The notes: generated from the sequence alone by a model not told the origin. A stretch of 53,816 bases of DNA from a virus (IMGVR_UViG_3300007539_000025:1-53816); one strand, 5' to 3'; shown: positions 16,401-52,826, counted from the stretch's first letter. Translations and numbers: made by a program.

Positions 16401-18129
16401 TATTGTTGGTGGTAATGCTCAAGAGAGTGGTTGGGTTATAAAAGATTGGATTGCTGATGCAACTGACCCAGGGGATGTTTCTAGTTGGGCAAACTTTACA
16501 GAACATTGTAGAGTAGATTTAGACAATGTTGTCAATGGTGGTATGATTAGTACTGGCGAAATGTATCTTGGCGGAACTACGACTCAATATAAAGCATTTC
16601 ACGATAATTATCACCCAAACGCTGATAAATGGACTACAGCTAGAACATTAAGTTTAACTGGTGACGTTACAGGTAGTGTAAGTTGGGACGGGTCTGCAAA
16701 TGCTTCAATTACAACTGCTGTAGCAAATAATAGTCATGAGCATACTAAACTTCACGAAGAAAGCACAATAACCTACGGAGGTAGTTATTTACAGTGGACA
16801 GATTTAAGTGGTAATGGTGGAGCAGGAACAAACGGTAACGCGCCTGGCAACCCTTTTAGCGATTGGCACCATCACCTTATAATGAATCACGGTAATAGCA
16901 GTGGTTATTATGTTGACATGGCATTTTCGTTCCACAGCGATAGAGTTCATTTTAGAAGACTTGAAAATGGTTCATTTGGATCTTGGAGAGAATTTTTCCA
17001 CACAGGACATCTTCCTACTTGGTCTGAAATAGCGTCAAAACCTTCTACATTTGCACCTAGCTCGCATAATCACGATGATAGATACTATACTGAAAGTGAA
17101 TCCGATGCTAAGTATTTATTAAACACTTCAGATGTTTTAAACGGTGAATTAAATGTAGCTAGAAATAGCGGTGTAACTGGTAGCTCAGCGCCTAGCTATA
17201 GTTCAGCTAACATAGAACTTCAAACTTCTAGCAACCACGTGCCTGCAATAAGTTTCCATAGAGGTGGTTATAGTGCATCAACACTATATGAATATGATGG
17301 TGAATTATATGTAAACCCTTGGACAACAAGAGCACAAGCAGGAAAACTTTTATCTAGTGGAAACTTTGATGATTATGTAACATCTACTTATATTAATAAC
17401 CTTGTTACAACTAGTGGAATTAGTCAATCTGATGCAGACACAAGATATATAAATGCCACTGGTGACACTATGAGTGGTACTCTGAACATGGCAGGTAATA
17501 TCTTATACCTTCACACTTCAAGTGGTAGTCCAGGTTTAAGAAGTTATTATGGTACTGTGAATGTAATAAACGGAAGTAGTGCTGGTACACTTTATGTAGG
17601 TACTGGTTCCGCTAACTCTAGTGGAGCTGTTTACGCTGTAACACAAGGTGCTAGTAGCAACAATAAAGTTGTTTATAATAATACATATCACAGTTACTAC
17701 GTTGGTAGTTCAACTGAAGAAATGCGCCTAGAGTCTGATGGTGATCTGCACGTTGAAGGTGATGTAACAGCTTACTCAACTACTGTTTCTGATATTAGAT
17801 TAAAAGACAATGTAATAACTATTGGTAATGCTTTAGATAAAGTTTGTAAGCTTAGAGGTGTAGAATACACTTGGAATAAAGGTAGTAGAAAAGACACAAG
17901 AGATCTAGGAGTTATAGCTCAGGAAGTAGAAAAGGTTTTACCTGAGATAGTTAAAGAGAAGAAAATGCCTCTAATAGATGACAGCGGTACTACATACAAA
18001 GCAGTAGACTACGAAAAAATAACAGCTGTATTAATAGAAGCAGTAAAAGAACAACAAGCTCAAATAGATGAGTTAACAACAATTTTAGAAGAAGTAACAA
18101 AACAATTAAATAATGGCAACAACATATAA
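13426..18129 (+). CDS. long tail fibre with C-terminal intramolecular chaperone (peptidase S74)
   Basis: SDIRLKDNV...GVIAQEVEKVLPEIV...VDYEKITAVLIEAVKE; internal repeats YHPNADKxTTAR x3 and RYYTESE x3. Confidence 0.92.
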   Translation: MAIRHLHDLSVVGNVTVATTGVTNNVLLTSTDTSAASAPDLVLYRNALIADSDTLGVLEFQGRNGMVTSSTAPLTYGAIYGRVFDASENHTGLGISANKGNGSGAFVDAMNVTLKGTNNSAEGAVIINPSTTFELPDSNLEVKGSYGITTESHGSSANWKQAYDNHITGVAVTGTSTKTITLTQRDGGTISANFSDQSGSGGIDMTNGSNNRVVTAVDSDTVNGEAGLLFGGSYLEITPGNIATPLQVKRTSASTRQVNLLLSANDGTTTSEGFLGIDSGADLRYGASSNTSTNSLVLTEDNLDFVVSSSTNNAIVRLAGGGTNFANFNIGGLAGAITVNSSSNSITIGHHDTSSSSSVNNSNGTVIQDVTLDTYGHVTALGSVNLDSRYYTESESNTLFVNVSGDTMSGNLSMNSNNITDIDLLSLGQNTVGTTFGDGVSSAPDHMISQQVGDNDGWRLYGEAPSTNDVKMIFEIVDDIESGDTWVFRNKKTYSPYTARDEFKIAGDGKFYSRGNGYVNTNQRVFADNYHPNADKWTTARSHTVTLTGEVTGTATQSVDGTGNKTWSIATTLNNTALDDQYVDVTGDTMTGKLTLSDSGYEIGDEMMVWKKHYVVNSTNPGELLYSDGNSLPNGGIYRFTAHISGTGTDQFARAVYWNQNGTWRVNVTGQSGTSSNHPEFQILSNGTSNVPHVHIDHASNYTIQVLGERIGLTEGTGTDNAGYGFGVDGFMGSVHSDLYFLPGGTTATGADPYNDGNKVFHDGYHPNADKLTTARTIAGTSFDGTSNIDINYNNLTNKPSIPTVNNGTLTVQGTGALGGSGTFTANQSTNATISISHDDTSSQSSVNNSSGTVIQDVTLDGYGHVTSLGSVDLDGRYYTESEIQTFFNRGYISKHSAVNLPVGWYTIATNTGDRALGEFQIWDGASGDHQSVLFNASHHFGTNGSNDINVLANSRYSGTNFRYIRIKDNGTYDGAALQVYVDGASNSVNVAIVGGNAQESGWVIKDWIADATDPGDVSSWANFTEHCRVDLDNVVNGGMISTGEMYLGGTTTQYKAFHDNYHPNADKWTTARTLSLTGDVTGSVSWDGSANASITTAVANNSHEHTKLHEESTITYGGSYLQWTDLSGNGGAGTNGNAPGNPFSDWHHHLIMNHGNSSGYYVDMAFSFHSDRVHFRRLENGSFGSWREFFHTGHLPTWSEIASKPSTFAPSSHNHDDRYYTESESDAKYLLNTSDVLNGELNVARNSGVTGSSAPSYSSANIELQTSSNHVPAISFHRGGYSASTLYEYDGELYVNPWTTRAQAGKLLSSGNFDDYVTSTYINNLVTTSGISQSDADTRYINATGDTMSGTLNMAGNILYLHTSSGSPGLRSYYGTVNVINGSSAGTLYVGTGSANSSGAVYAVTQGASSNNKVVYNNTYHSYYVGSSTEEMRLESDGDLHVEGDVTAYSTTVSDIRLKDNVITIGNALDKVCKLRGVEYTWNKGSRKDTRDLGVIAQEVEKVLPEIVKEKKMPLIDDSGTTYKAVDYEKITAVLIEAVKEQQAQIDELTTILEEVTKQLNNGNNI

Positions 18130-20161: not shown

Positions 20162-20390
20162 AGCAGTTAAAGAACTTATTAAAGTTGCAAAAGAGCCTAT
20201 CGTCGAAACAGAAGATGACGTGTCTGCAGATAGACTCAAGAATGCTGCCGCTACTAAAAAACTGGCCATATTCGATGCCTTCGAGATTTTAAATAGAATA
20301 AAAGACGAAGAAGATATGCTTGATGGTATAGTTAAAGAAGAAAAAAAGCAAGAGTCTTTTTCTGGTTTTGCTGAAAGAAAATCTAAATAA
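20115..20390 (+). CDS. putative terminase small subunit
   Basis: Small helical protein abutting the large subunit; the call is positional. Confidence 0.55.
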   Translation: MNIKETKRSIIQAGHEAVKELIKVAKEPIVETEDDVSADRLKNAAATKKLAIFDAFEILNRIKDEEDMLDGIVKEEKKQESFSGFAERKSK

Positions 20391-22609
20391 TGCATCAGCA
20401 AGAGCTATATAAGGTTGTAGAACCTATAAAAATAAACACCATAAAAAGACTTAATAAGTCTAAAAAGTGGGAGTACGGTTACAATAAAGAAAATGATATT
20501 GTTGTAATTAGTAAAACAGGTATGATAGGTGATATTCTTGAAATACAAAATTTAAAGATTGCATTACCTAAAGTACCTAAAGATGTTTGTAAGTTTGAGG
20601 GTGACAAATGGCAAGTAACTGAATATCCAAAAGAATTAAGTAGAATAAAAACTATATTTGATTGGAAAGAATATCCAAGTGATTTTAAAAGTAAATACAT
20701 AGATTACATTGAAAATGAATTTAAAAAACGTGAGGAAGGTTTTTGGTTTTATAACAAAGGTGTTCCTACTTACATCACTGGTACTCATTACATGTACTTG
20801 CAGTGGAGTAAGATTGACGTTGGCAAACCAGACTTTAGAGAAGCAAATAGATTATTCTATATATTCTGGGAAGCTTGCAAGGCAGACAGAAGGAGTTATG
20901 GTATGTGCTATCTTAAAAATCGTAGATCAGGATTTTCGTTTATGGCATCAGGAGAAGTTGTTAATCAAGCAACTATTAGTTCCGATTCACGATTCGGCAT
21001 ACTGTCCAAATCTGGGCCGGATGCCAAGAAAATGTTCACAGATAAAGTCGTACCAATATCGGTCAATTATCCGTTCTTTTTCAAACCGATACAAGACGGA
21101 ATGGATCGTCCCAAAACAGAGTTGGCATATAGAGTACCAGCGTCCAAACTCACAAGAAGGAACATCACATCTACGACCGATCGGCCCGAGGAACTTACGG
21201 GACTCGATACCACGATAGACTGGAAAAACACAGGTGATAATAGTTATGACGGTGAAAAATTAAAATTACTAGTACATGACGAAAGTGGTAAATGGGAAAG
21301 ACCCAATAACATCTTAAACAACTGGCGTGTTACTAAAACAACACTTAGATTAGGTAGTAGAGTTATAGGTAAGTGTATGATGGGATCAACATCAAATGCG
21401 TTAGATAAAGGAGGTGATAATTTTAAGAAACTTTATAAAGATTCAGATGTCACAAAACGAAACCGCAATGGACAGACTAGCTCAGGACTATATAGCTTGT
21501 TCATACCTATGGAATGGAACTACGAAGGATTCATTGATTCTTTTGGATTACCTGTATTCGAAACGCCAGAAACAGAAGTTGAAGGTCCTTATGGGGAGAT
21601 CATAGATACTGGTATATTAGAGCATTGGCAAAACGAAGTTGATGGTTTAAAAAATGACGGAGACGCTTTAAATGAATTTTACAGACAGTTTCCTAGAACT
21701 GAAGAACATGCTTTCAGAGACGAAACAAAAAATAGTATATTTAATTTATCAAAAATATACGAGCAAATAGATTATAACGAAGAGTTGAATAATGAAAACT
21801 CAGTAACAAGAGGTAGTTTTCAATGGTTAAACGGTGTTAAAGATAAAACAGTTATATTTTACCCTAACCAAAACGGTAGATTTAATGTTAGTTGGTTTCC
21901 ACCTAGTAGATTACAAAATAACGTTATAATTAAAAACGGTAAAAAATATCCAGGCAATGAACATTTAGGTGCTTTTGGTTGTGACAGTTACGATATATCA
22001 GGTACTGTTGACGGTAAAGGTTCTAAAGGTGCTTTGCATGGTTTAACAAAATTTAGTATGGAGGACGTACCTCCTAATCATTTCTTTTTAGAGTACATAG
22101 CTAGACCTGATACAGCTGATATGTTTTTTGAAGACGTATTAATGGCTTTACACTTTTATGGTATGCCATTGTTAGCGGAAAACAACAAACCTAGGTTGTT
22201 GTATTATTTAAGAAGACGTGGTTACAGAGGTTACTCTATGAACAGACCTGATAAGGTTTGGAACAAATTATCTACAGCAGAAAAAGAGGTTGGTGGTATA
22301 CCAAACTCTAGCGAAGATGTTAAACAAGCGCATGCTGCTGCGATTGAAATGTATATACAAGATCATGTTGGTTTAAAACACGATGGTGATGCTGGTAACA
22401 TATATTTCAATGAAACTTTGCAAGATTGGGCTAAGTTTGACATAAACAATAGAACCAAATACGATGCATCGATAAGCTCTGGTTTAGCTATAATGGCTTG
22501 TAATAGACATTTATATAGACCTAATGCTGAAGTGCAAAAACAAAAATTGAATTTAAACTTTGCTAGATACAAAAATTCTGGTGTAAGATCAAAACTAATA
22601 AATAATTAA
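20390..22609 (+). CDS. terL: terminase large subunit
   Basis: Walker A-like KNRRSGFS, Walker B LLVHDESGK, nuclease GCDSYD; followed by the portal. Confidence 0.92.
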   Translation: MHQQELYKVVEPIKINTIKRLNKSKKWEYGYNKENDIVVISKTGMIGDILEIQNLKIALPKVPKDVCKFEGDKWQVTEYPKELSRIKTIFDWKEYPSDFKSKYIDYIENEFKKREEGFWFYNKGVPTYITGTHYMYLQWSKIDVGKPDFREANRLFYIFWEACKADRRSYGMCYLKNRRSGFSFMASGEVVNQATISSDSRFGILSKSGPDAKKMFTDKVVPISVNYPFFFKPIQDGMDRPKTELAYRVPASKLTRRNITSTTDRPEELTGLDTTIDWKNTGDNSYDGEKLKLLVHDESGKWERPNNILNNWRVTKTTLRLGSRVIGKCMMGSTSNALDKGGDNFKKLYKDSDVTKRNRNGQTSSGLYSLFIPMEWNYEGFIDSFGLPVFETPETEVEGPYGEIIDTGILEHWQNEVDGLKNDGDALNEFYRQFPRTEEHAFRDETKNSIFNLSKIYEQIDYNEELNNENSVTRGSFQWLNGVKDKTVIFYPNQNGRFNVSWFPPSRLQNNVIIKNGKKYPGNEHLGAFGCDSYDISGTVDGKGSKGALHGLTKFSMEDVPPNHFFLEYIARPDTADMFFEDVLMALHFYGMPLLAENNKPRLLYYLRRRGYRGYSMNRPDKVWNKLSTAEKEVGGIPNSSEDVKQAHAAAIEMYIQDHVGLKHDGDAGNIYFNETLQDWAKFDINNRTKYDASISSGLAIMACNRHLYRPNAEVQKQKLNLNFARYKNSGVRSKLINN

Positions 22610-22610
22610 T

Positions 22611-25040
22611 ATGGCTGAGGCAGTTACTAAAGGATACTTTCCAAGTCAAATCGTTAGTGATTTAGAAAAAATGAGTGATGACTACGGGCTCAAGGTGGCT
22701 AAAGCCATTGAGAGCGAGTGGTTTAAAAGAGACTCAGGTACTAACAGGTTTTTTGGTAATCAAACAGAGTTTCATAAATTAAGACTATATGCTAGAGGTG
22801 AACAATCTATACAAAAATATAAAGACGAATTATCAATTAACGGTGATTTATCATATCTTAATCTTGATTGGAAACCAGTACCTATTATACCTAAATTTGT
22901 AGATATAGTTGTAAATGGTATATCTGAAAGAGCGTTTGATATAAAAACATATACACAAGACCCTTACGGTATGAGTAAGAGGACTAAATATATGGAGTCT
23001 GTATTAAGAGATATGAGAACTAAAGAAATATCTCAATTTGCTAAAGATAACTTCGGTGTAGAGATAACTGAAAACGATCCTGAAAAACTACCAGACTCAC
23101 AAGAGGAACTAGAACTACACATGCAGCTTAGTTATAAGCAAGCTGTTGAATTAGCAGAAGAACAAGCTATAAACGTTGTTTTAAATGGTAATAAATATGA
23201 TTTAACTAGACGTAGAGTTAATTATGATTTAACTGTTTTAGGTATAGGTTGTGTTAAAACAACTTTTTCAAAAGCAGAAGGTATTAAAGTAGATTATGTA
23301 GATCCTGCTAATTTAGTTTATTCTTATACTGAATCACCTTACTTTGATGATATATATTACGTAGGTGAAGTTAAAAGTGTACCAGTGAATGAGCTTAAAA
23401 AAGCATTTCCTAATCTCACACAAGATCAATTAGAAAAAATAACTGGCCAAGGTTTTCAAAACAGTGGATTTTACAATAGAAGTTTAACTGAGCAAAACCA
23501 ACTAGATAAAAACCAAGTACAGATTTTATATTTTAATTATAAAACTTATGCTAATGAAGTTTATAAAGTAAAAGAAACTGCAACTGGTGCTAGTAAGATT
23601 ATTGTAAAAGAAGGTGACTGGAACCCAGTTATTGATGATGCATTAGAACAAAGATTTGGTAAACTAGAAAAATCAATAGAAGTATTATATGAAGGAGCTT
23701 TAGTGTTGGGTACTGAAATAATGCTACAATGGGGATTAGCTAAAAATATGTTAAGACCAAAAAGCGATTACACTAAAGTTCAAATGAATTATAGTATAGT
23801 TGCTCCTAGAATGTACAAAGGCCGTATTGAGAGTTTAGTAGGTAGAATAACTGGATTTGCTGATATGATACAGTTAACTCACTTAAAACTACAACAAGTA
23901 ATGTCTAGATTAGTACCAGATGGTGTTTATTTAGATGCTGACGGTTTAGCTGAAATTGATTTAGGTAACGGTACAAACTACAACCCACAAGAAGCATTAA
24001 ACATGTTCTTCCAAACTGGTAGTATTATTGGTAGATCATTTACATCTGACGGTGATATGAACCCAGGTAAAATACCTATTCAAGAAATACAGAACAGTGC
24101 TGGTAGTGCTAAAATGCAAAGTTTGATAGGTACATATAACTATTATCTACAAATGATAAGAGACGTGACCGGGTTAAATGAAGCTAGAGACGCTAGTACG
24201 CCTTCAAAAGACTCACTAGTTGGTGTACAAAAAATAGCTGCAGCAAACAGTAACACAGCAACAAGACACATACTACAAAGTGGTTTATTCTTGACAGCTG
24301 AGACTGCTGAAAAAGTTTCATTAAGAATATCAGATATATTAGAATATTCACCAACTAAAAATGCGTTTATTCAAAGCATCGGCACGCATAATGTAGCAAC
24401 GCTTGATGAACTAACTGAGTTACATTTATATGACTTTGGTATATTTATAGAGTTAGCGCCAGATGATGAGCAAAAACAAATGCTAGAAAACAATATACAA
24501 ATGGCATTAACTCAACAAACTATAGACCTTGAAGATGCTATAGATTTAAGAGAAATTAAAAATGTAAAGTTAGCTAATCAGCTTTTAAAGATAAGACGTA
24601 AAAAGAAAATGGAAGCTGATCAAGCTGCTCAACAACAAAATATACAAGCTCAAGCTCAAGCTAATGCTGAAGCTCAACAAGTTGCAGCTCAAGCAGAAGT
24701 ACAAAAACAACAAGCATTAACTCAACAAAAATTACAGCTAGAACAAGCTAAAAGTAAGTTTGAGTTAGAGAGATTAATGCAGGAAGTTAATTTGAAAAAA
24801 GAGCTAATGAATCACGAGTTCATGATTAACATGCGTTTAAAAGGTATGGAGCTTGAAACCGTTAACGCTAAAGAAAAATATAAGGAAGACAGAAAAGATG
24901 AGCGTACTAAAATACAAGCTAGTCAACAGTCTGAATTAATCGATCAAAGAAAAACTAATAAACCACCTAAAAACTTTGAATCGTCAAGTAATGATATACT
25001 AGGTGGAGGTGTGGGGTTAAATCAATTTGATCCTAGATAA
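22611..25040 (+). CDS. portal protein
   Basis: 809 aa; PVPIIPKFVDIVVNG; Q-rich C-terminal coiled coil (P22-like barrel); position after TerL. Confidence 0.88.
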   Translation: MAEAVTKGYFPSQIVSDLEKMSDDYGLKVAKAIESEWFKRDSGTNRFFGNQTEFHKLRLYARGEQSIQKYKDELSINGDLSYLNLDWKPVPIIPKFVDIVVNGISERAFDIKTYTQDPYGMSKRTKYMESVLRDMRTKEISQFAKDNFGVEITENDPEKLPDSQEELELHMQLSYKQAVELAEEQAINVVLNGNKYDLTRRRVNYDLTVLGIGCVKTTFSKAEGIKVDYVDPANLVYSYTESPYFDDIYYVGEVKSVPVNELKKAFPNLTQDQLEKITGQGFQNSGFYNRSLTEQNQLDKNQVQILYFNYKTYANEVYKVKETATGASKIIVKEGDWNPVIDDALEQRFGKLEKSIEVLYEGALVLGTEIMLQWGLAKNMLRPKSDYTKVQMNYSIVAPRMYKGRIESLVGRITGFADMIQLTHLKLQQVMSRLVPDGVYLDADGLAEIDLGNGTNYNPQEALNMFFQTGSIIGRSFTSDGDMNPGKIPIQEIQNSAGSAKMQSLIGTYNYYLQMIRDVTGLNEARDASTPSKDSLVGVQKIAAANSNTATRHILQSGLFLTAETAEKVSLRISDILEYSPTKNAFIQSIGTHNVATLDELTELHLYDFGIFIELAPDDEQKQMLENNIQMALTQQTIDLEDAIDLREIKNVKLANQLLKIRRKKKMEADQAAQQQNIQAQAQANAEAQQVAAQAEVQKQQALTQQKLQLEQAKSKFELERLMQEVNLKKELMNHEFMINMRLKGMELETVNAKEKYKEDRKDERTKIQASQQSELIDQRKTNKPPKNFESSSNDILGGGVGLNQFDPR

Positions 25041-26281: not shown

Positions 26282-27775
26282 ATGGCAAGTGGAAGTTTTA
26301 CTGGGAGTGCTAGTGCTTTAGCGCACTTAACTCCAAGACCTGTAAAAGATTTATATGGGTCAAATTACCTTTCTATCGCGGGTAATGATTATAATTTTGC
26401 GAAGCAGTTTTTACCAGAAGTTTATGAGAAAGAAGTAGAGAGATACGGAAATAGAACTATCTCAGGTTTCTTAAAAATGGTAGGAGCTGAAATGCCTATG
26501 GCTTCAGACACAGTAGTATGGTCTGAGCAAGGTAGAATTCACGTTGCATTTGATGACTGTTCAGTAGGATCAGACTCAACTGACAACGTATTAATTTTTG
26601 CTGACGCTACAAAAGCTGGCTTAGTTAGCCCACACGATACTATCGTTATTTATGATGGTTCTGGTGCTGCTGTAAAAGCTGTAGTAGTTTCTGCAAGTGG
26701 TTCTGTATCAAACGGTGTAAATGTTATTCCTTACGCTGCTGCTAACTTACAAGTAGCTGGTATCGCTAACAGTACAACTGGTTTGAAAGTGTTTGTATAC
26801 GGTACTGAGTATAAAAAAGGATCTTCAAACGCTGGATCTTCTAAAGATGCTGACTTTACTACTTTTAGTAACAAGCCTATCATCTTAAGAGATAAGTACA
26901 GCATCAACGGATCTGATACTGCTAGCATCGGCTGGGTAGAAGTAACTACTGAAGCTGGAACTGGTGGATACTTGTGGTACTTAAAATCTGAGCACGAAGC
27001 AAGAATTAGATTTGAAGATCAACTAGAAATGGCAATGATTGAAGCTGAAAAAGTTTCAGGAACTCAAATGGACTCTTTCCTAGGTACTGCTAACGGTGGT
27101 GGCGCAGGTACAGGTCTACATGGTACTGAAGGTTTATTTGCTGCTATCAGCGACAGAGGACTAGTTTTCAACAACCCTGACTTTGGCGAAACTGGAGCAA
27201 ACAACACAGGTGAAGGTTTAGTAGAGTTTGATATTATCTTACAAGAACTTGATAAGCAAGGTTCTATCGAAGAAAACATGTTATTCTTAAACAGAGGAAC
27301 ATCTTTAGCTATCGATAACATGCTTGCTAAGCAAAATTCTTACGGAACTGGCGGTACATCTTATGGTGTATTTGACAACTCTGAAGATATGGCACTTAAT
27401 TTAGGTTTCTCAGGATTTAGAAGAGGTTCTTATGACTTCTATAAGTCTGACTGGAAATATCTAAACGATGGCACCACTAGAGGTTTAGTTGGAGACGTAC
27501 AAGGTGTGTTAGTTCCTGCTGGAACAAGTACAGTTTACGACCAGATTCTTGGTAAAAATATCAAGAGACCATTCTTACATGTTAGATATAGAGCTTCAGA
27601 AGCTGATGACAGAAGAATGAAATCTTGGATCACAGGATCAGTTGGTGGAAACTATACAAGTGACGAGGATGCTATGAACGTACACTTCTTATCAGAAAGA
27701 TGTTTATGTGTTCAAGCTGCTAACAACTTTATTCTATTCAAAGATGCTGACGGTGCAACTGGAGACAGTGACTAA
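26282..27775 (+). CDS. major capsid protein
   Basis: 497 aa; WSEQGR, GTEGLFAAI; strongly biased codons; followed by a strong hairpin. Confidence 0.88.
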   Translation: MASGSFTGSASALAHLTPRPVKDLYGSNYLSIAGNDYNFAKQFLPEVYEKEVERYGNRTISGFLKMVGAEMPMASDTVVWSEQGRIHVAFDDCSVGSDSTDNVLIFADATKAGLVSPHDTIVIYDGSGAAVKAVVVSASGSVSNGVNVIPYAAANLQVAGIANSTTGLKVFVYGTEYKKGSSNAGSSKDADFTTFSNKPIILRDKYSINGSDTASIGWVEVTTEAGTGGYLWYLKSEHEARIRFEDQLEMAMIEAEKVSGTQMDSFLGTANGGGAGTGLHGTEGLFAAISDRGLVFNNPDFGETGANNTGEGLVEFDIILQELDKQGSIEENMLFLNRGTSLAIDNMLAKQNSYGTGGTSYGVFDNSEDMALNLGFSGFRRGSYDFYKSDWKYLNDGTTRGLVGDVQGVLVPAGTSTVYDQILGKNIKRPFLHVRYRASEADDRRMKSWITGSVGGNYTSDEDAMNVHFLSERCLCVQAANNFILFKDADGATGDSD

Positions 27776-39830: not shown

Positions 39831-42800
39831 ATGGAAAAACTATATAATCAATTATATAAGGACGGTAAATATACCAAAACTTTTGAAGACTTTCAATCGC
39901 AGTTTGGTACACCAGAAACATCTGAAAAGCTATATACAGCTTTAAATGAAGCAGGAGACTATACAAGGTCTTTTGATGATTTTAAAGCACAATTCAATAT
40001 AGCGGGAAAGACATCAGACCCTGTAAATGTAGAGGCAACTGCGGGGTCAGTAAACAATACGGCCTCCGAATCGGTAGGTGGTTCTTCGGATTTAGTAGAT
40101 CCTGACGATTTTGAAAACACACAAGAGAAAAACACATGGCTTGAAGATACTTTTGGTAAAAACCAAGTAACAGATTTTTTTGGCGATTTTTATAGAGCTG
40201 GAAGTGCTGGTGCTAAAGCAGGTAGAAGTGTAGATGAAGCTTTTGATCTGTTTAAGTACGGAAGTGAAATGACAGATGAACAAGTTAAAGACTTTCTTGA
40301 TGCTCAAAGAAATATGGAGTCTGGAGGTCAAACAGACGAAATGATTTCGTTTTCTCAGGAGTTTAATGAGCTTAAAGATAAATATGGTGGTATAGGTGGT
40401 ACTTTAGCGGCTTGGTGGAAAAACCCAAGTGTTATGGCTCAATACACTACACAATCTTTAGTTCAAATGGCTAATGCCGCTTATGATAGTGAAGAAGTTT
40501 TTGGTACAGCCGCTGCAGCGTCTGGAGGTGGGGCTGCTGTAGGAGCTGGAACAGGTGCAGCATTAACAGCTATTGGTGGACCATTAGCTGTATTTGGAGC
40601 CGCAACTGGTGCTATTGGTGGTGGTATAGGTGGTTTTTTTGGTGGATTATCAGGCGCTATGGAAACTGGTATGACAACAGCTCAACTAATGCAAGAAGCT
40701 GCTGAAAAAGAAGGTTTAAACTGGGGATCAATGACAGATGATGAAAGGTTTAAATGGGTTAGAAAAATGACCAACGATAAAGAGGCTTTTGATGATATAA
40801 AAAGCAAAGCATTAGCAAGAGGTATAACCATAGGTGCTATTGATGGTGTTGTTGGTGCTGTGTCAGGTGGTGTAGGTGGTGTTGCATTTAAAACAGTTGC
40901 TGGTACAACTAAAAGTGCTCTTGCTGGCGCAGCTAGAGTTAGTGCAGTCGCGGCGTTAGAAACAGGTGGTGGTATGGCTAGTGAATATTATGGTCAAAAA
41001 GCTGCTGGTCAAGAAATGAATCTTGAAGAAATAATGATTGAAGGTTTTGCAGACAAAACATTTACAAGCATAGCCGTTGGTAAAGCTTTAGTTCAAGGTG
41101 CACCTAAATACTCTATAAATGGCCAAACGTTAAATGGTAAAGAATTTAACGATGCTCTTAAAATGATGGACGATGAGGCTTATGTATCTGCTGATATAAA
41201 AGTAGAAAACTCACCTGCAGTTGAAAGAGTTGTAAACAACAGAAGACAAAATATATCTATAGATCAAGATATAGATAGTAGAGTATCTGATGTTAACGAT
41301 AGAGCAGAGCTTATAAAACTAGAAAAACAAGTTGCCGCTTTATCAGGCAATGAAACTGTTTCTGGTAAAAACAAGCTTAATAATTTAAAAGCACGTATTA
41401 AAGAAATAACATCTAAATACGAAGGTGCTGAAGTTGATGCTACTGTTGAGCAAAGAAAACAAGCTGTAGCAAAGGCAATAGATGATAAATTTGAGGCATC
41501 GTTTAATAAAAACTTAAAAGCAACAAAAGAGGCAGCTGCTAAAAAAGGTACAAAAATTGATGTATTTGAAGACGAAGATTCTTTTATAAATAAAATAGCT
41601 GAAAACCAAGGTATAACACCACAACAAGCTAGAAGTATAGATGGTGTTTTAAGTTCTGACGGTGTATTTGTTGGTGATGGTCAAATATATATAAACAAAA
41701 CCAAAGCAAAACAATTTGGATCTGTATCTGTTGCTAGTCACGAATTTTTACACCCTGTATTAAATGCAGCTATTGGTGATACTAAACAACAAGGTAAAAT
41801 AGTTAATGACTTTAAAAAACAATTAACTAGTAAACAAAGATCGTATGTAGAAAAAACACTACGTGAAAAAGGTTATAGTCAATCAGAGTACGCTACAGAG
41901 TATTTAAACATATTTTCAGATGGTATACAAAAAGGTGATATAAACTATGATCAAAACTTATTTGAAAAAATAGGTGAAGCTATAAAAAGATTTTTTGTAG
42001 GTAAAGGTTTTGATAATATATCGTTTGATAATGGTAGAGATGTATATAACTTTTTAAAAGAGTATAACACAAGTATTAAGCAAGAGGGCAAGGTTAGCCA
42101 AAAGGCTATGGATGCTATAACTACTGCAGAACAAAAAACTGGTAGAAAAGTTGGTACAGTTGGTACAGCTGGTAGCATGCAAATGTCAAGAGCTGAAGAC
42201 GTATCTGAAATAAATCAAATATACGATAACACACCTGATAAAACACAAGCTGGTTTTGAAATAGCTCAGAAATATAGAGGTATGGCTGAGTCTGTGTTTA
42301 AACAACTTAGAGATGGTCAAAACCTTACACCAGATCAACAAGATGTTTTAAACCAAAACAAAGAAGATATTATAGCTATGATGCTATATGACAAAATACC
42401 TAGTCAAAGACAAGATTCTAAAGCTAGAAACGTATTAGGTTTAGTACAGGACTTTGTTAAAGAAAAGCAAAAATATGGTAATGTTGCTGCTTATATAAAT
42501 ACGTTTTTTAAAAACAGATCAAAAGAAGTTACTCAATACTTTATACCTGATGCAGTGTTAGAAGGTATGGAGACACAAGAAGGTACTTTAAAAAAATCCG
42601 TTGCCACTAAAACAGCTGATCAAAAAACAACTAAACCCCAAGGTCCAAAAGCTAGAAAAATAACTAGCTTTGAAAAGTTAACTATAGATGGTGAAGAATT
42701 TTACACACCAGCTATGAAAGCTGAAGTTGCTAAAAGAGTAGCTGCTAACGTAAGCATAAACGCTAGAAAAGGTTTAAACGTAAATGAAGTAGTTAAATCT

Positions 42801-45800
42801 ATAGAAGAAGACGTTAAAACTGTGATTAGAGACGTTATTAAAAAACAAATGGGTAAAGTTTCAAAAGTAAAAGGTGAAACTGTTATAAGCCCTGAGTATC
42901 AAAACTTCTTAGATCAGTCTTATGATATGTTTGTAAAGTCAATGCCTTTATCAACTATCAAGAGACGTTATAGTAAGTTATTTAAATTAAAAAAATTAGG
43001 TAGAGAACAAACAGCTGTAGGTAAAGGTATATTTCAAATGACTAAGCCTACTAAACAAGAGTTTAACACTTTCTTTACAAAAGGTGGTTATACCACATTA
43101 ATTGAAAGACAAAAAGGTATAGCTGTAGCTATGGCTGAAGAGTTTGCGGCTAATGAAACTAGTAGGTTATCAACTGATCAAAACTTTTTAGAAAAAATAG
43201 CTAGCATATTAGAGATAAGTGATGTAGCGTTAGTACCAGAAGCTCAACTACAACAGTTGATAAAAGATATTGCTAAAGCACAAGACAGAAAGATTAGTGA
43301 AGCTAGAGGCTTTGATCAAACATTACAGTTTAGTAAAACTATGTTTGAAACAAATCAAGAAGATAAAGTTACTTCTGTTTTGAGTTTTGGTGTAACAAAT
43401 CAAATAATCAAAAACACTTATTTAGAGTGGAAACAAACTGGAAAACCAAAATCAGGAAAATGGTTGGAGGTAGCTTTATTAAGAATACTACCTAATAATG
43501 GTAATATTGAGCAAGCTAGACAAATAGCCAAAGAGCTAGCTGGTAAACAAAAGGGTTTTCAAAGAAACATAACAGCTTTAGCTGATGCAAAAGGTATAGA
43601 TTTAGTTGTTGAAGATATAGTTAAATTCGTAATAGATCCTGATGCTAATAACAGTGTAGAAATAATAAATGCTAAGCTAGGTATAAAGTCTCAATATGAT
43701 GGTAAAAACCTAGGTCACGTAAATGAAGCTAGAGCTTTAGCTAAAAAGCTTAAAGATGCTATTGGTGAAGATAGTTTTATAAAAAGTTTATACCAAGGTT
43801 TTGTTAGTCCAGCTAGATTAGCTAATTTTAAAGCTAAAAAAACACCAGATTTGTTTATAAAAGACGATCAAGTAACTATAGCTAAAGACGAGAAAACTGG
43901 TAAAGATAAGAAAAACTACTATAGTTTATTTGCTGATGTCGTTGACGCAGGAAAAAACTTACTTATAAAATCTACAGCTGGTAAATTTAGAGACGGTAAT
44001 CAAACTAAAAAGAATTGGTTTTTTAGTAAAGTATACAATAAATTATCAGACGCTGGTAAAATAGCGTTTACTAAAAAACTATTAAAATCAGCTAAAAAAG
44101 AACAAAAAACATTTTTAGAGGTAGTAAATGTATTAAGAGAGTCTTATAAAGATAATTCTGCTAGTCCTCAAGCTATAGAAGGTGTTTTACTATCTATGTT
44201 TGGTGTTATGACTGGTTTGGGTAAAGCTATGGCTGGTATAAAATTTTTACCTGTAGATCCAGTAACAGGCAAACTTTTAACAATGGAAGATCTTTTTAAA
44301 ATGGATCTTGCTTTTAAAAACGATGCAGGTGTGTTTGAGCACATGAAACCTGCAGATTATATAAAAGGTTTAGCTTACTATTACATAACAACAGGTAAAG
44401 GTTTAGATGTTTTAACTAGTGAACTAGACTCTTACGATATAGCTATAATACCTGACAGAGTAGACAAAGTCATAACAGGTAGAGGAAATCAAAGTTATTT
44501 GGGACTTCTTTATAAACCAGGTGTAAATCCTTTTGGTCGTGGGCAAAGATATAGAGGTTTAGGTATTTCGTTTATGAATATTGAAACAGGTGAAATTGTT
44601 AGAAGTGGTCTGCAGTTTAGTAGAAACTCGCAACAAAGACAAAACTTAAACAAAGCAATAGAGCTAGCTAGAGATCCTAATAAAAAAGAAAAAGGTATAA
44701 GTGTATTTGATTTTGATGATACACTAGCACAAACAAATAGCATGGTTATAGTTAAAATGCCTGATGGTAAAACTATGGAGATAGATGCTACAAGGTTTGC
44801 GCTTGAGTCTGCTGATCTTGAAGCTGCAGGAGCTATATTTGATTTTAGTCAATTTAATCAAGTTATAGATGGTAAGAAAGGTCCATTGTTTGATTTAGCT
44901 ACAAGAAGACAAGACAAGTTTACTAGTAAAGATATATTTGTGTTAACAGCTAGACCACAAGAAGCAGCTATAGCAATACACGCTTTCTTAAAAGGTATGG
45001 GATTAAACATACCTATGAAAAACATAGTTGGTTTAGCGGACGGTAGACCAGAAGCTAAATCAGACTGGATAATAGGTAAAGCTGCTGAAGGTTATAACAA
45101 CTTCTACTTTGCAGATGACGCTTATAAAAATGTTAAAGCAGTACAAGATGTGCTTAACCAGATCGATGTTAAGTCTGATGTGCAACAAGCGTTTATACAG
45201 TTTAGTAGAACTATGGACGAAAGCTTTAACGATATATTAGAAGAAACAAAAGGTGTTAAGTCTGAAGCTAGATTTAGTGATGCTGCAGCTAGAGCAAGAG
45301 GAGCTAAAAAAGGTAACTTCTTTAAAAACTTATTTGTACCACCATCAGCTGAAGACTTTGTAGGTTTATTATATTCTTTCTTAGCTAAAGGTAAAAAAGG
45401 TGAACAACAAATGGCTTTCTTTGAAAAAGCATTAATAAAACCTTTTGCTAGAGCAATGCAAGAGCTTGCAGCGGCTAGACAGGTTTATGCTAGCGGTTTA
45501 AGAAGTATAAAGAAAGCTTACCCAGATGTAACAAAGAGGTTAGCCAAGCCGACTAAGTATAACGAGTTTAATCACGACACAGCAATAAGAGCTTACATAT
45601 GGAATAAATTAGGTTATGATATTCCAGGTATGTCTAAGACAGATATTAAGAGATTAACAGAATTAGTTGAAAATGATCCAAGTTTAAAAGCTTTTGCTCA
45701 AGACTTAATGGATTTAACGCAAGACAGAAAATATGTACAACCTGGTGAAAGCTGGTTAGCTGGTAATATAGCTACAGATATAAAAGATATAACTGATAAG

Positions 45801-47306
45801 GTTGGTAGAAAAGAGTTTTTAAAACAGTGGATAGATAACAAAAATGTTATATTCTCAAAAGAGAATATGAACAAGATAGAAGCTATATACGGTAAAGATT
45901 TTAGAGAAGCTTTAGAAGATATGCTTTATCGTATGGAGAACGGTACTAACAGAAACTTTGGTGGGCAAAGTAGATTAGTAAATAGTTTTACAAATTGGGT
46001 TAACAACTCTGTTGGTGCTATAATGTTCTTCAATATTAGATCAGCTGTACTACAAACATTATCTATGGTTAACTTTGTTAACTGGACAGATAATAACCCT
46101 GTAGCAGCAGGAGCAGCTTTATTAAACGTGAAGCAGTTTGCAAAAGACTTTGTTACTATATTTAACTCAGACATGTTAAAACAACGTAGAAGAGGTATTG
46201 GTAGAGATATTAATGAATCTGAGATAGCTGAAGCAATGTATGGTAAAAAGAACAAACCAAAAGCTATACTTAACTATCTGTTGAGAATTGGTTTTACACC
46301 TACACAGATAGCGGATAGTTTTGCTATAGCAGCCGGTGGTGCTTCTTTTTATAGAAACAGAATAAAAACATACATGAAAAAAGGCATATCAAGAGCTGAA
46401 GCTGAGCAACAGGCTTTTGCTGATTTTGCTGAAATATCTGAAAAAACACAGCAGTCATCTAGACCAGATCTTATATCACAACAGCAAGCTGGTCCATTAG
46501 GTCGTTTGATATTAGCTTTTCAAAACACACCTATGCAGTACACTAGATTAATAAAGAAAGCTTTTCTTGATCTTGTAAATGGTAGAGGTGATATGAAAAC
46601 TAATATAAGTAAAATAGCTTATTATGGTTTTGTACAAAACTTAATATTCGCTTCAATGCAATCAGCTTTATTTGCTTTAATGTTTACAGACAAAGAAGAA
46701 GACGAAGACTTCGCTGAAAACAAAAAAGAAAGAGTAGCTAACTCAATGGTTGATACGTTACTAAGAGGTACAGGTGTATATGGAGCTGGTATTGCTACTA
46801 TAAAAAACATGATCAAAAGATTTGTTAAAGAAGAAGAGAAAGACTTTGGTACCGATCACACGTATACGATAATAGAAGCTGTAAACTTATCACCGCCAGT
46901 AGGTAGTAAATTAAGAAAACTATACTCAGGTATACAAACGTATAGATTTAATAAAGATCTTATATCTCATAAAGGTTTTGCGTTAGATAATCCTGCTTAT
47001 CAAGCTGGTGGTAATGTTGTATCTGCTTTAACAAACGTTCCATTAGACAGGTTATTTAATAAAATGAATAACCTTAGAGCTTCAATGAATAATAACAACG
47101 AAGCTTGGCAAAGAATAGCGTTAGCGCTAGGTTGGAACACTTGGGATGTAGACGCTGAACTTGATCCTGAATTAGATAAGTTAAAAGAGTTTTTAAAGAA
47201 AAAAAGAAAAGCAAATCAAGCGAAAGATCCAGATTACAGAAAAAAACAGATTGAAAGATATAAAAAACAAAGAAAAGAAAAGATCAAAAAACTAAAAAAC
47301 AAATAA
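39831..47306 (+). CDS. large polyvalent putative ejected protein (Gly-rich TM region, zincin, sigma2-like, nuclease-like, HAD, helical C-terminal domain)
   Basis: HEFLH at aa 637; FDFDDTL/LTAR/K/ADD HAD motifs at aa 1626-1763; Q[FM]S[RK] linkers at aa 784, 1166, 1595, 1790. Confidence 0.8.
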   Translation: MEKLYNQLYKDGKYTKTFEDFQSQFGTPETSEKLYTALNEAGDYTRSFDDFKAQFNIAGKTSDPVNVEATAGSVNNTASESVGGSSDLVDPDDFENTQEKNTWLEDTFGKNQVTDFFGDFYRAGSAGAKAGRSVDEAFDLFKYGSEMTDEQVKDFLDAQRNMESGGQTDEMISFSQEFNELKDKYGGIGGTLAAWWKNPSVMAQYTTQSLVQMANAAYDSEEVFGTAAAASGGGAAVGAGTGAALTAIGGPLAVFGAATGAIGGGIGGFFGGLSGAMETGMTTAQLMQEAAEKEGLNWGSMTDDERFKWVRKMTNDKEAFDDIKSKALARGITIGAIDGVVGAVSGGVGGVAFKTVAGTTKSALAGAARVSAVAALETGGGMASEYYGQKAAGQEMNLEEIMIEGFADKTFTSIAVGKALVQGAPKYSINGQTLNGKEFNDALKMMDDEAYVSADIKVENSPAVERVVNNRRQNISIDQDIDSRVSDVNDRAELIKLEKQVAALSGNETVSGKNKLNNLKARIKEITSKYEGAEVDATVEQRKQAVAKAIDDKFEASFNKNLKATKEAAAKKGTKIDVFEDEDSFINKIAENQGITPQQARSIDGVLSSDGVFVGDGQIYINKTKAKQFGSVSVASHEFLHPVLNAAIGDTKQQGKIVNDFKKQLTSKQRSYVEKTLREKGYSQSEYATEYLNIFSDGIQKGDINYDQNLFEKIGEAIKRFFVGKGFDNISFDNGRDVYNFLKEYNTSIKQEGKVSQKAMDAITTAEQKTGRKVGTVGTAGSMQMSRAEDVSEINQIYDNTPDKTQAGFEIAQKYRGMAESVFKQLRDGQNLTPDQQDVLNQNKEDIIAMMLYDKIPSQRQDSKARNVLGLVQDFVKEKQKYGNVAAYINTFFKNRSKEVTQYFIPDAVLEGMETQEGTLKKSVATKTADQKTTKPQGPKARKITSFEKLTIDGEEFYTPAMKAEVAKRVAANVSINARKGLNVNEVVKSIEEDVKTVIRDVIKKQMGKVSKVKGETVISPEYQNFLDQSYDMFVKSMPLSTIKRRYSKLFKLKKLGREQTAVGKGIFQMTKPTKQEFNTFFTKGGYTTLIERQKGIAVAMAEEFAANETSRLSTDQNFLEKIASILEISDVALVPEAQLQQLIKDIAKAQDRKISEARGFDQTLQFSKTMFETNQEDKVTSVLSFGVTNQIIKNTYLEWKQTGKPKSGKWLEVALLRILPNNGNIEQARQIAKELAGKQKGFQRNITALADAKGIDLVVEDIVKFVIDPDANNSVEIINAKLGIKSQYDGKNLGHVNEARALAKKLKDAIGEDSFIKSLYQGFVSPARLANFKAKKTPDLFIKDDQVTIAKDEKTGKDKKNYYSLFADVVDAGKNLLIKSTAGKFRDGNQTKKNWFFSKVYNKLSDAGKIAFTKKLLKSAKKEQKTFLEVVNVLRESYKDNSASPQAIEGVLLSMFGVMTGLGKAMAGIKFLPVDPVTGKLLTMEDLFKMDLAFKNDAGVFEHMKPADYIKGLAYYYITTGKGLDVLTSELDSYDIAIIPDRVDKVITGRGNQSYLGLLYKPGVNPFGRGQRYRGLGISFMNIETGEIVRSGLQFSRNSQQRQNLNKAIELARDPNKKEKGISVFDFDDTLAQTNSMVIVKMPDGKTMEIDATRFALESADLEAAGAIFDFSQFNQVIDGKKGPLFDLATRRQDKFTSKDIFVLTARPQEAAIAIHAFLKGMGLNIPMKNIVGLADGRPEAKSDWIIGKAAEGYNNFYFADDAYKNVKAVQDVLNQIDVKSDVQQAFIQFSRTMDESFNDILEETKGVKSEARFSDAAARARGAKKGNFFKNLFVPPSAEDFVGLLYSFLAKGKKGEQQMAFFEKALIKPFARAMQELAAARQVYASGLRSIKKAYPDVTKRLAKPTKYNEFNHDTAIRAYIWNKLGYDIPGMSKTDIKRLTELVENDPSLKAFAQDLMDLTQDRKYVQPGESWLAGNIATDIKDITDKVGRKEFLKQWIDNKNVIFSKENMNKIEAIYGKDFREALEDMLYRMENGTNRNFGGQSRLVNSFTNWVNNSVGAIMFFNIRSAVLQTLSMVNFVNWTDNNPVAAGAALLNVKQFAKDFVTIFNSDMLKQRRRGIGRDINESEIAEAMYGKKNKPKAILNYLLRIGFTPTQIADSFAIAAGGASFYRNRIKTYMKKGISRAEAEQQAFADFAEISEKTQQSSRPDLISQQQAGPLGRLILAFQNTPMQYTRLIKKAFLDLVNGRGDMKTNISKIAYYGFVQNLIFASMQSALFALMFTDKEEDEDFAENKKERVANSMVDTLLRGTGVYGAGIATIKNMIKRFVKEEEKDFGTDHTYTIIEAVNLSPPVGSKLRKLYSGIQTYRFNKDLISHKGFALDNPAYQAGGNVVSALTNVPLDRLFNKMNNLRASMNNNNEAWQRIALALGWNTWDVDAELDPELDKLKEFLKKKRKANQAKDPDYRKKQIERYKKQRKEKIKKLKNK

Positions 47307-51110: not shown

Positions 51111-52826
51111 CTAACCATCACACGCGACACAATCTTCACTCATTGCGCGCTCTGCAATATCTCCACGTAGGACACTCTCTGTCCTCATATAATACAACGT
51201 TTTTATACCTTGTTTCCAAGCTTCCATATGAACTTGATTAAGCCACTTTGGTGTAGCTTCGGAAGGAAAGGCTAAGTTCAAGCTAACAGACTGATCGATA
51301 TACTGTTGTCTTATACCTGCTTGTCTAACTAGCTCTAGTTGATTTATCTCTTTAAATGTTTTAAATATTTCTTTAACAGGTGTTTCGTTTATTTCTAAAC
51401 CATCTAGTTCTTTTACTCCTTGAACAGATCCACCGTCTTTCAATATCTTATTCCATATGTTTTCGTTATTCAGTTTAAATCTTCTTAACACCTTGACAAG
51501 CGTCGGATTTTTTCTGATAAACGTCCCTTTAGCAGTTTGCTCAGTAAAAACATTAGCGGCCCAAGGCTCAATACCAGGACTAATGTTGCCAGCCAACTTA
51601 CTATTAGAGACAGTAGGAGCAATAGCCCGAAGATGAGTATTCCGCATACCTGTACCACGACACCACAAAGGTTCGCCGTAAATCTCTGCCAATGCTCTTG
51701 AAGCTCTTTCTGATTCGATCTTAATCTGGCTAAATATACGTCTTGTTTGGAATTGCGCTGGCAAACCCTCAAACGCATAGCCGTTCTGTTGTAAGTACGT
51801 ATGCCAACCGAGGACTCCCAACCCAAGTGCTCTGCCTTTCTCAGCAGATCGTACAGAGTTCTCGAAGCCTTTTCTATATTTAGCTTTCTGTATAAACTCC
51901 TCAAGCACACCGTCCAGAAACCAGATAGCATCGTAAATAATGTTTGTGTTTTTCCATTCGTCATATTTTGCTAAGTTTAGTGATGATAAACAACACACAA
52001 AACTGTGTGATTCGTCTGTATGTAGAACTATTTCACTACATATATTTGTCATGTGTACCTTTAATGCATTTTCTTTGTATGCTTCTGGATTAGCTTTGTT
52101 AGTGTTTCCTTTAAACAAGATATACGGCTCTCCGGTGCTTTTCCTCTTTCTAAGTAATTTACTCCATCTAGCCCTTGCTGTTGCATCTCCTTGCTCAAGC
52201 TTTCGCATAAACTTATCACCAATAACTGCGCATTGATGTAAGTTAAGGCTTTGTCTGTTAATATCTCCTTTAGGTTCTCGTATTTCAAGCCATTCTTCAA
52301 AATCATCGTGGTCAATGTTGATATTGACGCTTGCAGCTCCTCGTCTAACTGATCCTTGGTTTGTTGCAAGGATTGTACTATCATAGATCTTGCAGAAGGG
52401 TACGACTCCGTCTGATGTTCCATTTCCTGTTATTTTAGCGCCGGCTGGTCTAATCATATTAACTCCAATGCCTACACCGCCGCCGTGCTTCGCGAGTAGC
52501 ATCATTTCTAAGTTCTTAGTGCCAATGTCAACTATGCTATCAGCAACATCAATACCGAAACAACTTATAGGTAAACCTCTATCTAGTCCTGTATTAGACA
52601 GAACAGGTGAGGCCAAACATAACCAACCGTTCCATATGTATTCAAAGAACCTGTCGGTTAACTCTGGTTTATAAAGTCTTTTAGCAACTGTATTAGCTAC
52701 ACGCATGTAAGCATCTCTAGGAGTTTCACCGTTGTGTAGATAACCACCAGCTATAGTTTTCTTATAAACTTCTGTATCTCCCCAGTTAGGGTAATCTATT
52801 CCTTTTTTCCAATCTTTATTCCACAT
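51111..52826 (-). CDS. nrdA: ribonucleotide reductase class I alpha subunit, no ATP cone
   Basis: ISCF, TNICSEI, AIAPT, IDQSVS, KTLYY and C-terminal CVAC. Confidence 0.96.
   Translation of the reverse strand: MWNKDWKKGIDYPNWGDTEVYKKTIAGGYLHNGETPRDAYMRVANTVAKRLYKPELTDRFFEYIWNGWLCLASPVLSNTGLDRGLPISCFGIDVADSIVDIGTKNLEMMLLAKHGGGVGIGVNMIRPAGAKITGNGTSDGVVPFCKIYDSTILATNQGSVRRGAASVNINIDHDDFEEWLEIREPKGDINRQSLNLHQCAVIGDKFMRKLEQGDATARARWSKLLRKRKSTGEPYILFKGNTNKANPEAYKENALKVHMTNICSEIVLHTDESHSFVCCLSSLNLAKYDEWKNTNIIYDAIWFLDGVLEEFIQKAKYRKGFENSVRSAEKGRALGLGVLGWHTYLQQNGYAFEGLPAQFQTRRIFSQIKIESERASRALAEIYGEPLWCRGTGMRNTHLRAIAPTVSNSKLAGNISPGIEPWAANVFTEQTAKGTFIRKNPTLVKVLRRFKLNNENIWNKILKDGGSVQGVKELDGLEINETPVKEIFKTFKEINQLELVRQAGIRQQYIDQSVSLNLAFPSEATPKWLNQVHMEAWKQGIKTLYYMRTESVLRGDIAERAMSEDCVACDG

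Follow-up and report, generated by a model that had tools for sequence, protein, structure and literature searches.

The viral record IMGVR_UViG_3300007539_000025 (the window; 53.8 kb, 53,816 nucleotides (nt), approximately 34% G+C, estimated to be 83% complete) encodes a giant modular protein, P0001, in which the borders between dissimilar domains are marked by one recurrent tetrapeptide. P0001 is read here as a polyvalent polyprotein, probably carried in the virion, that is cut at these junctions by its own zincin domain, a metallopeptidase resembling those of anthrax lethal factor and the Pro-Pro endopeptidases (PPEPs); this reading has about an even chance of being right. The initial annotation of this DNA had likewise proposed an ejected, self-processing polyprotein, and its description of a zincin-bearing protein with several domains is borne out. 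The gene is the largest of the late genes and closes the structural block. With 2491 residues, at least five separately folding regions in two AlphaFold models, and modules that are replaced independently in relatives, P0001 has a polyvalent-type architecture.

The motif Q[FM]S[RK] occurs four times, as QMSR (residue 784), QFSK (1166) and QFSR (1595 and 1790); these positions, and that of the zincin motif HEFLH (residue 637, nt 41739), are all as initially annotated. The composition of P0001 predicts 0.084 copies of Q[FM]S[RK] (Poisson probability of at least four, about 2e-6) and 0.057 copies of QFS[RK] (at least three, about 3e-5); since the motif was defined after being seen, these probabilities flatter it. 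In an unbiased count of 3-mers, QFS or FSK is the most over-represented in many relatives; in P0001 itself QFS, with three copies, lies outside the top three 3-mers listed. The other open reading frames (ORFs) of the window with at least 100 residues, which include portal and capsid-like proteins and comprise 13,505 residues, contain no copy, and a six-frame scan of the window finds a single further one, at 43899 in a non-coding antisense frame. In related loci, 37 motifs fall within 23,616 residues of giant proteins (pre-selected for at least three motifs), versus none within 31,900 residues of other plus-strand ORFs. A chance origin of the motifs is rejected on the composition, 3-mer and other-ORF counts.

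Two AlphaFold models were built with family alignments, covering residues 540–1200 (mean predicted local distance difference test, pLDDT, 71.5) and 1150–1850 (mean pLDDT 76.5). In these models all four motifs are predicted to lie in stretches with pLDDT<50 at the ends of domains, and not inside folded domains, in agreement with the domain borders that had been assigned from the sequence. In model numbering, motif 1 (residues 245–248) falls within the low-confidence stretch 243–252 and motif 2 (627–630) within 611–638; motif 3 (446–449) occupies most of a short stretch, 445–450 (residues 1594–1599 of P0001), and motif 4 (641–644) forms the start of stretch 641–667. Residues with pLDDT<50 make up 106 of 661 and 94 of 701 in the two models (approximately 15%). 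The last two motifs bracket the HAD domain, as had been noted; its fold spans model residues ~470–643 (residues 1619–1792).

Three of the motifs also share the DNA string CAGTTTAGTA[AG]A, a correct observation of the initial annotation: QFSK at 1166 is encoded by CAGTTTAGTAAA and both copies of QFSR by CAGTTTAGTAGA. The DNA of QMSR at 784 is different (CAAATGTCAAGA). In principle, the motif could be a by-product of module shuffling, that is, a junction sequence at the level of DNA without any role for the peptide. The 12-nt string common to three motifs is consistent with this, as are the three motifs at recombination breakpoints (see below) and a codon bias, the junction Gln being CAG at 29 of 65 sites (45%) compared with 19% for Gln elsewhere in the same genes; this excess may reflect context or shared ancestry. 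Across the 65 motif sites in 31 genes, however, the Ser codon is TCT in 31 cases, AGT in 21, AGC in 8, TCA in 4 and TCC in 1. Because it switches between TCN and AGY, it is the peptide that is kept and not the DNA; the shared 12-mer fails as a conserved DNA signal, and a site at the level of DNA does not account for the swapping. Junction 4, moreover, keeps the motif without being a breakpoint, and the variants of the motif are defined at the level of amino acids. An origin in DNA alone is highly improbable.

Relatives of P0001 from uncultured viruses are abundant: 1661 of 8000 candidates scored reach E<=0.001, and the viral contig collection holds at least 569 confirmed stretches related to P0001. 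In 32 diverse sequences the motif Ser is at least 90% conserved, and its surroundings are not. Copies of Q[FMY]S[KR] number at least three in 62 of 121 family members and at least one in 98. This form goes with zincin helices of the types HExxHP..N or HEFLHK..N, and other helices are accompanied by other peptides: MFSR in four copies (L030, HEGAHQAFW), SLSI/SLSL/SLSI/QLSL (P0064, HEILHAVLG), QFSL/QLSI/QTSL (P0099, HELLHGILN) and K[FY]SK in three copies (P0076, HELGHIQTR). Non-homologous junctions of one protein share one peptide, and this peptide differs between lineages. Accordingly, proteins whose site 4 is of the Q type (QxS[KR]; n=89) have on average 2.54 further Q-type and 0.91 K-type copies, and those with a K-type site 4 (n=21) have 0.33 and 2.05, respectively.

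The candidate reader of this code is the zincin domain itself. Its residues H637, E638, H641 and E690 are invariant in the 32 diverse sequences, and HExxH is present in 119 of 121 family proteins. The predicted core contains a three-stranded sheet (strands 36–40, 73–76 and 79–83 in model numbering), a helix with HEFLH (95–108) and a later helix with the Glu ligand E690 (145–161). Structural comparison of residues 540–771 with VIA-align returns the N-domain of Certhrax (Z 6.7, 170 residues aligned), PPEP-2 (Z 6.0, 145 aligned), PPEP-3 (Z 5.6) and anthrax lethal factor (Z 5.5), and the Pfam family ATLF matches with E 0.0033 (17.6 bits; cut-off 27.4). Foldseek searches of the Protein Data Bank (PDB) with both AlphaFold models gave nothing at E<=0.001. 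As all zincin matches lie below family thresholds, the domain is called 'lethal-factor/PPEP-like' rather than a member of the family. Lethal factor and the PPEPs, which belong to MEROPS family M34, cut short linear motifs in unstructured segments. The domain of P0001 shares with lethal factor and PPEP-1/2/3 the HExxH motif and the downstream Glu; it differs in being embedded in a phage protein of 2491 residues, and the substrates presumed for it are linkers within P0001 itself instead of host proteins. Junction 1 begins 147 residues downstream of the first His in HExxH, so that the protease would free its own C-terminus by cutting there. In the five relatives checked for this distance, the first junction follows HExxH by 146–152 residues, and in four of them the motif variant differs from that in the window.

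Binding of a junction by this domain is supported, as a prediction, by a co-fold of residues 540–781 with a 41-residue peptide (residues 1575–1615) and Zn. The score was 0.70 (runs 0.70, 0.43 and 0.80), compared with 0.02 for the best control; 58 of 80 solved complexes and 2 of 110 mismatched pairs attain the mark applied to such scores. The runs agree in at least 61% of contacts, and the pLDDT of the partner is at least 51. Confident peptide contacts comprise model residues 440 and 443–451, centred on QFSR (446–449). These residues of the third linker are predicted to contact H637, E638, H641, T689, E690 and the edge strand 69–75; an edge strand together with the metal site is where zincins usually accommodate their substrates. 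Where site 4 starts with Q, residue 689, the predicted contact of the motif Gln, is T, I or N (49 of 56 sequences). Glu occupies this position in 13 sequences, seven of which have K at the start of site 4 and two Q, some of these site-4 mappings being out of register.

Binding and cutting need not go together, and the peptide might remain uncut, as a conserved flexible joint that is read by a common partner or is needed for packing or threading of the unfolded chain. Candidates for such a partner are the zincin cleft (as a non-cleaving clamp or in a self-inhibited state), a chaperone such as the GroEL-like protein of the phage, and sites on the interior of portal or capsid. Recurrence, with one variant per protein, shows a shared reader only, not hydrolysis; the phage does encode a GroEL-like chaperonin, and some proteins bearing zincin metallopeptidase (MPTase) domains are transferred or packaged at full length, according to PMC5512222. 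Two points oppose an uncut joint: the invariance of the catalytic Glu and the three metal ligands in 32 sequences argues for a working hydrolase, and the residues docked in the co-fold are located at the metal site. We regard an uncut joint as rather unlikely.

A different protease could also be responsible, either an unrecognised maturation enzyme of the phage or a host enzyme, with the zincin acting on, for example, the cell wall or host proteins. In prohead-protease systems such as those of T4 (gp21) and phiKZ (gp175), the protease gene is located in the head module and one site motif recurs in several head proteins. This pattern is not seen here: no protease family is recognised among the 20 larger neighbouring ORFs scanned with PHROGs or the 10 scanned with Pfam, and there are no motifs outside the giant ORF, in a genome that is 83% complete and has many ORFs without a family, which leaves room for such an enzyme. 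The absence of the motif from all other ORFs is unlike prohead-protease codes, which mark several head proteins. The co-fold, furthermore, puts the motif into the zincin cleft, and the motif variant differs between zincin subtypes. On the other side, prohead proteases cut many head-packaged proteins of large phages (for instance in SPN3US). The phage phi24B provides a further precedent; its gp47 (a polyvalent protein of 2811 residues with a metallopeptidase) is found in podovirus virions by proteomics, is unseen in the map from cryogenic electron microscopy, and has been proposed to act on the cell wall through its metallopeptidase (bioRxiv 10.64898/2026.04.10.717836). Cutting of the junctions by another protease is, on balance, distinctly unlikely.

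Finally, the junctions might cleave themselves by a Ser-dependent N-to-O acyl shift at the Phe-Ser bond. Self-cleavage of this kind is known from the HFS sites of Nup98 and PIDD, where it takes place inside a dedicated folded domain. Ser is indeed the most conserved residue of the motif and usually follows an aromatic one. The motifs of P0001, however, are predicted to lie in disordered linkers between unrelated folds, and the residue before Phe varies (Q, K, M, D or E), which makes an acyl shift very improbable.

Several observations weigh against self-cutting by the zincin. Junction cleavage is itself a prediction. The controls of the co-fold were unrelated folded proteins, none of them another loose peptide of P0001, and the existence of solved peptide complexes of lethal factor and PPEPs may predispose the model to place whatever loose peptide it is given into the cleft. 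The fold matches of the zincin are middling (Z 5.5–6.7), and both ATLF and LPD18 (see below) fall below Pfam cut-offs. The disordered stretches at residues 707–730 and 911–939 have no motif; the motif hence marks some flexible segments, not all. Among relatives, 23 of 121 are without a strict Q-type motif, and in P0031, P0033 and P0035 an HExxHP..N helix occurs together with [DE][FL]S[KR], so that helix type and motif are not strictly coupled. The raw concordance of zincin and motif (131 of 155) was examined with phylogenetically independent pairs, taken from a FastTree phylogeny of 155 C-terminal domains: of nine pairs, approximately three changed in the same and one in the opposite sense, and approximately five showed no difference (median p 0.6). 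As this sign test is underpowered, the raw concordance can be due to shared ancestry. Zincin positions that discriminate between classes are also not enriched among the predicted contacts (mean information 0.277 versus 0.292, Mann–Whitney p 0.55). The argument for one code rests on the recurrence, within single proteins, of several distinct variants, and not on a tree statistic.

We infer that the chain is cut at all, and likewise the bond, the protease and the timing. Under the preferred reading, self-processing by the zincin, P0001 would be made late and probably incorporated into the particle via its N-terminal part. Its linkers, with the consensus h-Q-[FMY]-S-[KR], would be bound in the catalytic cleft of its own zincin (HExxH plus E690), which would cut inside Q-F-S at every coded junction; at P1', a bulky hydrophobic residue would be suitable for a zincin. 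The first cut would perhaps occur at the protease's own C-terminus. Five products would result: the N-terminal portion up to and including the protease, module 2, the exchangeable cassette, a HAD phosphatase resembling polynucleotide kinase/phosphatase (Pnkp), and the conserved C-terminal domain. Cutting inside the capsid is as possible as cutting after injection. Since every junction has the same code, a module could be replaced by recombination and would still be released.

That the linkers are also points of cassette exchange had been suggested initially, and this holds for three of the four. A BLAST search with P0001 against 120 relatives gave 254 aligned pieces; 36 end at residues 760–819 and 57 at 1160–1199, and 64 start at 1580–1619. 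Coverage drops from ~90 to ~24–30 of the 120 relatives between residues 1166 and 1595. Junctions at 784, 1166 and 1595 are thus breakpoints of homology or recombination. Homology runs straight through residue 1790, which is not a swap point, since the HAD and C-terminal domains are never separated from each other. The closest relatives show sharp breakpoints; P0003 is 21% and 41% identical to P0001 before residue 784 and 96–98% after it, and P0004 and P0005 are 98–99% identical over residues 788–1165, 48–49% over 1170–1594, and again 98–99% over 1599–1789. In the latter two, the change in identity occurs within one 15-residue window of the motifs. The cassette slot of relatives accommodates one to three modules, each bounded by a further copy of the motif (e.g. 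P0028 and P0029). P0023 and P0036 have two motif copies only 11 residues apart, which look like scars of a lost module.

The cassette of P0001 (residues 1170–1594) has no family in searches of Pfam, NCBIfam or PHROGs; a protein atlas gives unnamed clusters only (0.89), and the VIA-align list for the model of residues 1150–1850 is filled by HAD rows. Its last ~95 residues (approximately 1502–1594, nt 44334–44612), a sub-domain with EH..P..YI, are common to many relatives with differing cassettes, and high-scoring segment pairs start at residue 1501 or 1502 in about 20 loci.

The module following the cassette belongs to the HAD superfamily, with four catalytic motifs and a Rossmann-like fold. 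The motifs are DFDDT (residues 1627–1631), T1706, K1743/K1750 and DD (1762–1763), and D1627, D1629, T1631, T1706, K1743/K1750, D1762 and D1763 are invariant in the 32 diverse sequences. Pfam HAD models give no match at E<=1, and Foldseek returns HAD rows with probabilities of up to 1.00. With VIA-align, residues 1619–1789 match most closely the 3'-phosphatase of T4 Pnkp (5uj0_B; Z 13.3, rmsd (root-mean-square deviation) 2.3, 126 residues aligned), followed by 4xrp_A (Z 12.6) and 1ltq_A (Z 12.2), and then by generic HAD rows (Z 11.4). The top matches are thus the 3'-phosphatase of T4 polynucleotide kinase and the bacterial RNA-repair enzyme Pnkp1. P0001 shares with T4 polynucleotide kinase/3'-phosphatase, its best fold match, the full DxDxT / T / K / DD motif set, and differs in being without the kinase domain. 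These model-based matches hint at nucleic-acid end-healing, not small-molecule metabolism, as the role of the HAD domain.

Module 2 consists of a helical domain (residues 789–911), a disordered stretch (911–939) and a second domain. Residues 946–1006 match LPD18 weakly (E 9.4e-4, 19.7 bits; cut-off 26.8), the sole sub-threshold row among the Pfam models for polyvalent proteins (LPD, MPTase-PolyVal), none of which exceeds its cut-off. In the protein atlas, module 2a falls with ribonucleotide reductase (RNR) fragment and LPD39-type clusters, with recognition below the mark. Searches of PDB sequences returned one row with a module-2 profile (E 0.3) and one with a whole-protein profile (E 0.36), and searches of six segments against Pfam, NCBIfam and PHROGs gave sub-threshold rows only. 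The helical domain (nt 42195–42563), directly after junction 1, gives many fold rows for region 2 of sigma factors (Z 5.2–7.0; for the top row, rmsd 3.4 with 92 residues aligned). Identity with sigma-70 region 2 was not borne out by sequence; PF04542 is not found in the window at E<=10, and a profile of nine sequences retrieves no sigma factor from PDB sequences. The C-terminal domain has no match in Pfam, NCBIfam or PDB sequences.

At the opposite end of the protein, the second of two N-terminal repeats ends in QFNI (residues 54–57, nt 39990–40001), which is QFSI in the relatives P0041, P0044 and P0048. Many alignments to relatives begin at residues 40–59, around QFNI. This tetrapeptide may be a fifth, degenerate junction.

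The coordinates of P0001, its parts and the principal genes of the window are collected in Table 1.

Table 1. Features of the window, in nt from its first position; residue numbers refer to P0001.
Feature	Position (nt)	Strand	Remarks
GroEL-like chaperonin	5407-6972	+	phrog_5725, E 1.3e-130
Tail-fibre-like protein	13426-18129	+	late block
Large terminase	20390-22609	+	late block
Portal	22611-25040	+	late block
Capsid-type virion protein	26282-27775	+	late block, which also has further virion proteins
Giant ORF (P0001)	39831..47306	+	2491 residues; modular, polyvalent; last large gene of the structural block
N-terminal tandem repeat, KLY..L...G.YT.F.DF..QF	39831..40010 (residues 1-60)	+	two copies of ~30 residues, ending DF..QF
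N-terminal Gly/Ala-rich region	40113..41474 (residues 95-548)	+	phrog_32588, E 2.1e-55
Zincin-like metallopeptidase domain	41451..42140 (residues ~541-770)	+	HEFLH at nt 41739-41753; candidate third ligand E690 at nt 41898-41900
Junction 1, QMSR	42180..42191 (residues 784-787)	+	linker with pLDDT<50; breakpoint
Module 2	42192..43325 (residues 788-1165)	+	helical domain, disordered stretch, second domain
Junction 2, QFSK	43326..43337 (residues 1166-1169)	+	linker with pLDDT<50; breakpoint
Variable cassette	43338..44612 (residues 1170-1594)	+	drop in coverage by relatives
Junction 3, QFSR	44613..44624 (residues 1595-1598)	+	linker with pLDDT<50; breakpoint; co-fold
HAD-type phosphatase domain	44625..45197 (residues 1599-1789)	+	catalytic motifs, fold matches
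Junction 4, QFSR	45198..45209 (residues 1790-1793)	+	linker; no swap point
Conserved C-terminal domain	45210..47303 (residues 1794-2491)	+	most conserved part of the family

Among the genes of the window, the portal alone places the phage near cultured ones, with 43–53% identity to podovirus-type phages of Flavobacterium ('elemo'), Cellulophaga, Tenacibaculum and Maribacter. No match to P0001 or to its C-terminal domain was found by megablast or tblastn in 50,697 phage records. In two of the phages near it by portal, the same slot contains an even larger gene, one for 3859 residues with two HEFGH motifs in MW202828.1 (L002 741-12320), and one for 3694 residues with HEIFH, annotated 'structural protein', in Flavobacterium phage elemoF 6-3D (L090 18719-29803, MT497071.1). 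The elemoF 6-3D giant has no usable similarity to P0001 (E>=0.33 only), P0122 matches P0001 in a single N-terminal Gly/Ala-rich stretch (E 1.2e-5), and a recurrent motif of the QFS type was found in neither syntenic giant. The syntenic giants being unrelated in sequence, the slot appears to hold very different zincin-bearing giants. In elemoF 6-3D, an annotated cpn10 adjoins the head genes. In the window, the structural block is followed by the large subunit of ribonucleotide reductase (51111-52826, minus strand; phrog_84, E 1.5e-148).

P0001 has no Cys among its 2491 residues, and the same is true of 112 of the 121 family members. By contrast, each of five other virion proteins encoded in the window contains 1–6. 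The hydropathy profile of P0001 has a few hydrophobic stretches (residues 237–270, 334–352 and 2267–2285). The lack of Cys and these stretches fit a protein that travels unfolded, without proving it. The position as last gene of the structural block, the annotation of the syntenic elemoF 6-3D giant and the lack of Cys are indirect signs of packaging; P0001 is probably a virion component of a podovirus-like phage of the marine Bacteroidota type.

The closest parallels to the proposed scheme come from polyproteins of RNA viruses, in which an embedded protease (3C or 3C-like) meets a recurrent junction code. Common to both are one chain with the protease in cis, a short motif at every junction, and a code that differs between lineages. 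P0001 is different in that it comes from a double-stranded DNA phage, has a metalloprotease in place of a Cys or Ser enzyme, is probably cargo of the virion and not a replicase, and that its cleavage is predicted. The gp47 protein of phi24B and the giant of elemoF 6-3D are alike in their very large size, a metallopeptidase motif and a gene at the end of the structural block; they differ from P0001 in showing neither usable sequence similarity nor a recurrent QFS-type motif.

That the zincin MPTases of polyvalent proteins release domains autoproteolytically, either inside the capsid or once the cell has been entered, was proposed by Iyer, Burroughs, Anand, de Souza and Aravind in 2017 (PMC5512222). 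P0001 resembles the polyvalent proteins described there: a giant multi-domain phage protein with unrelated modules, a zincin (HExxH plus E) as hub and extensive mosaicism; the weak LPD-type matches (LPD18 and LPD39-type atlas clusters) point in the same direction. It differs in having an explicit junction code with variants between relatives. In the passages of Iyer et al. covered here, no motif is named for a cleavage site or linker (the term 'linker' is absent, and 'cleavage site' appears in the reference list only), and neither a sigma factor nor a HAD phosphatase was found listed in the main text. In the literature searched, QFSK/QFSR was not found as a phage cleavage site, nor were named sites for such proteins. 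The general idea of autoprocessing is therefore already published, as a bioinformatic proposal of 2017; no published description of the site code was found.

The present family allows exact predictions: cutting at four bonds, dependence on a single catalytic residue (E638) and, as specificity swaps, the natural variant codes of relatives. A more far-reaching idea, which is possible although doubtful, is that a lineage-private code of protease and substrate (zincin subtype plus junction peptide) makes the giant virion protein a plug-and-play delivery rack. Modules between coded junctions would be co-packaged via one targeting part and freed as effectors; these would include the Pnkp-like phosphatase, which could counter tRNA- or DNA-nicking defences, and a module with a fold like the part of a sigma factor that binds RNA polymerase, for host takeover before phage gene expression. 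If self-processing at the junctions is true, it would account for the loading of several enzymes in a fixed ratio by a podovirus-like phage through a single gene, and for the presence of recombination breakpoints at junctions. It would also provide a rule for spotting cargo modules in very many uncharacterised relatives.

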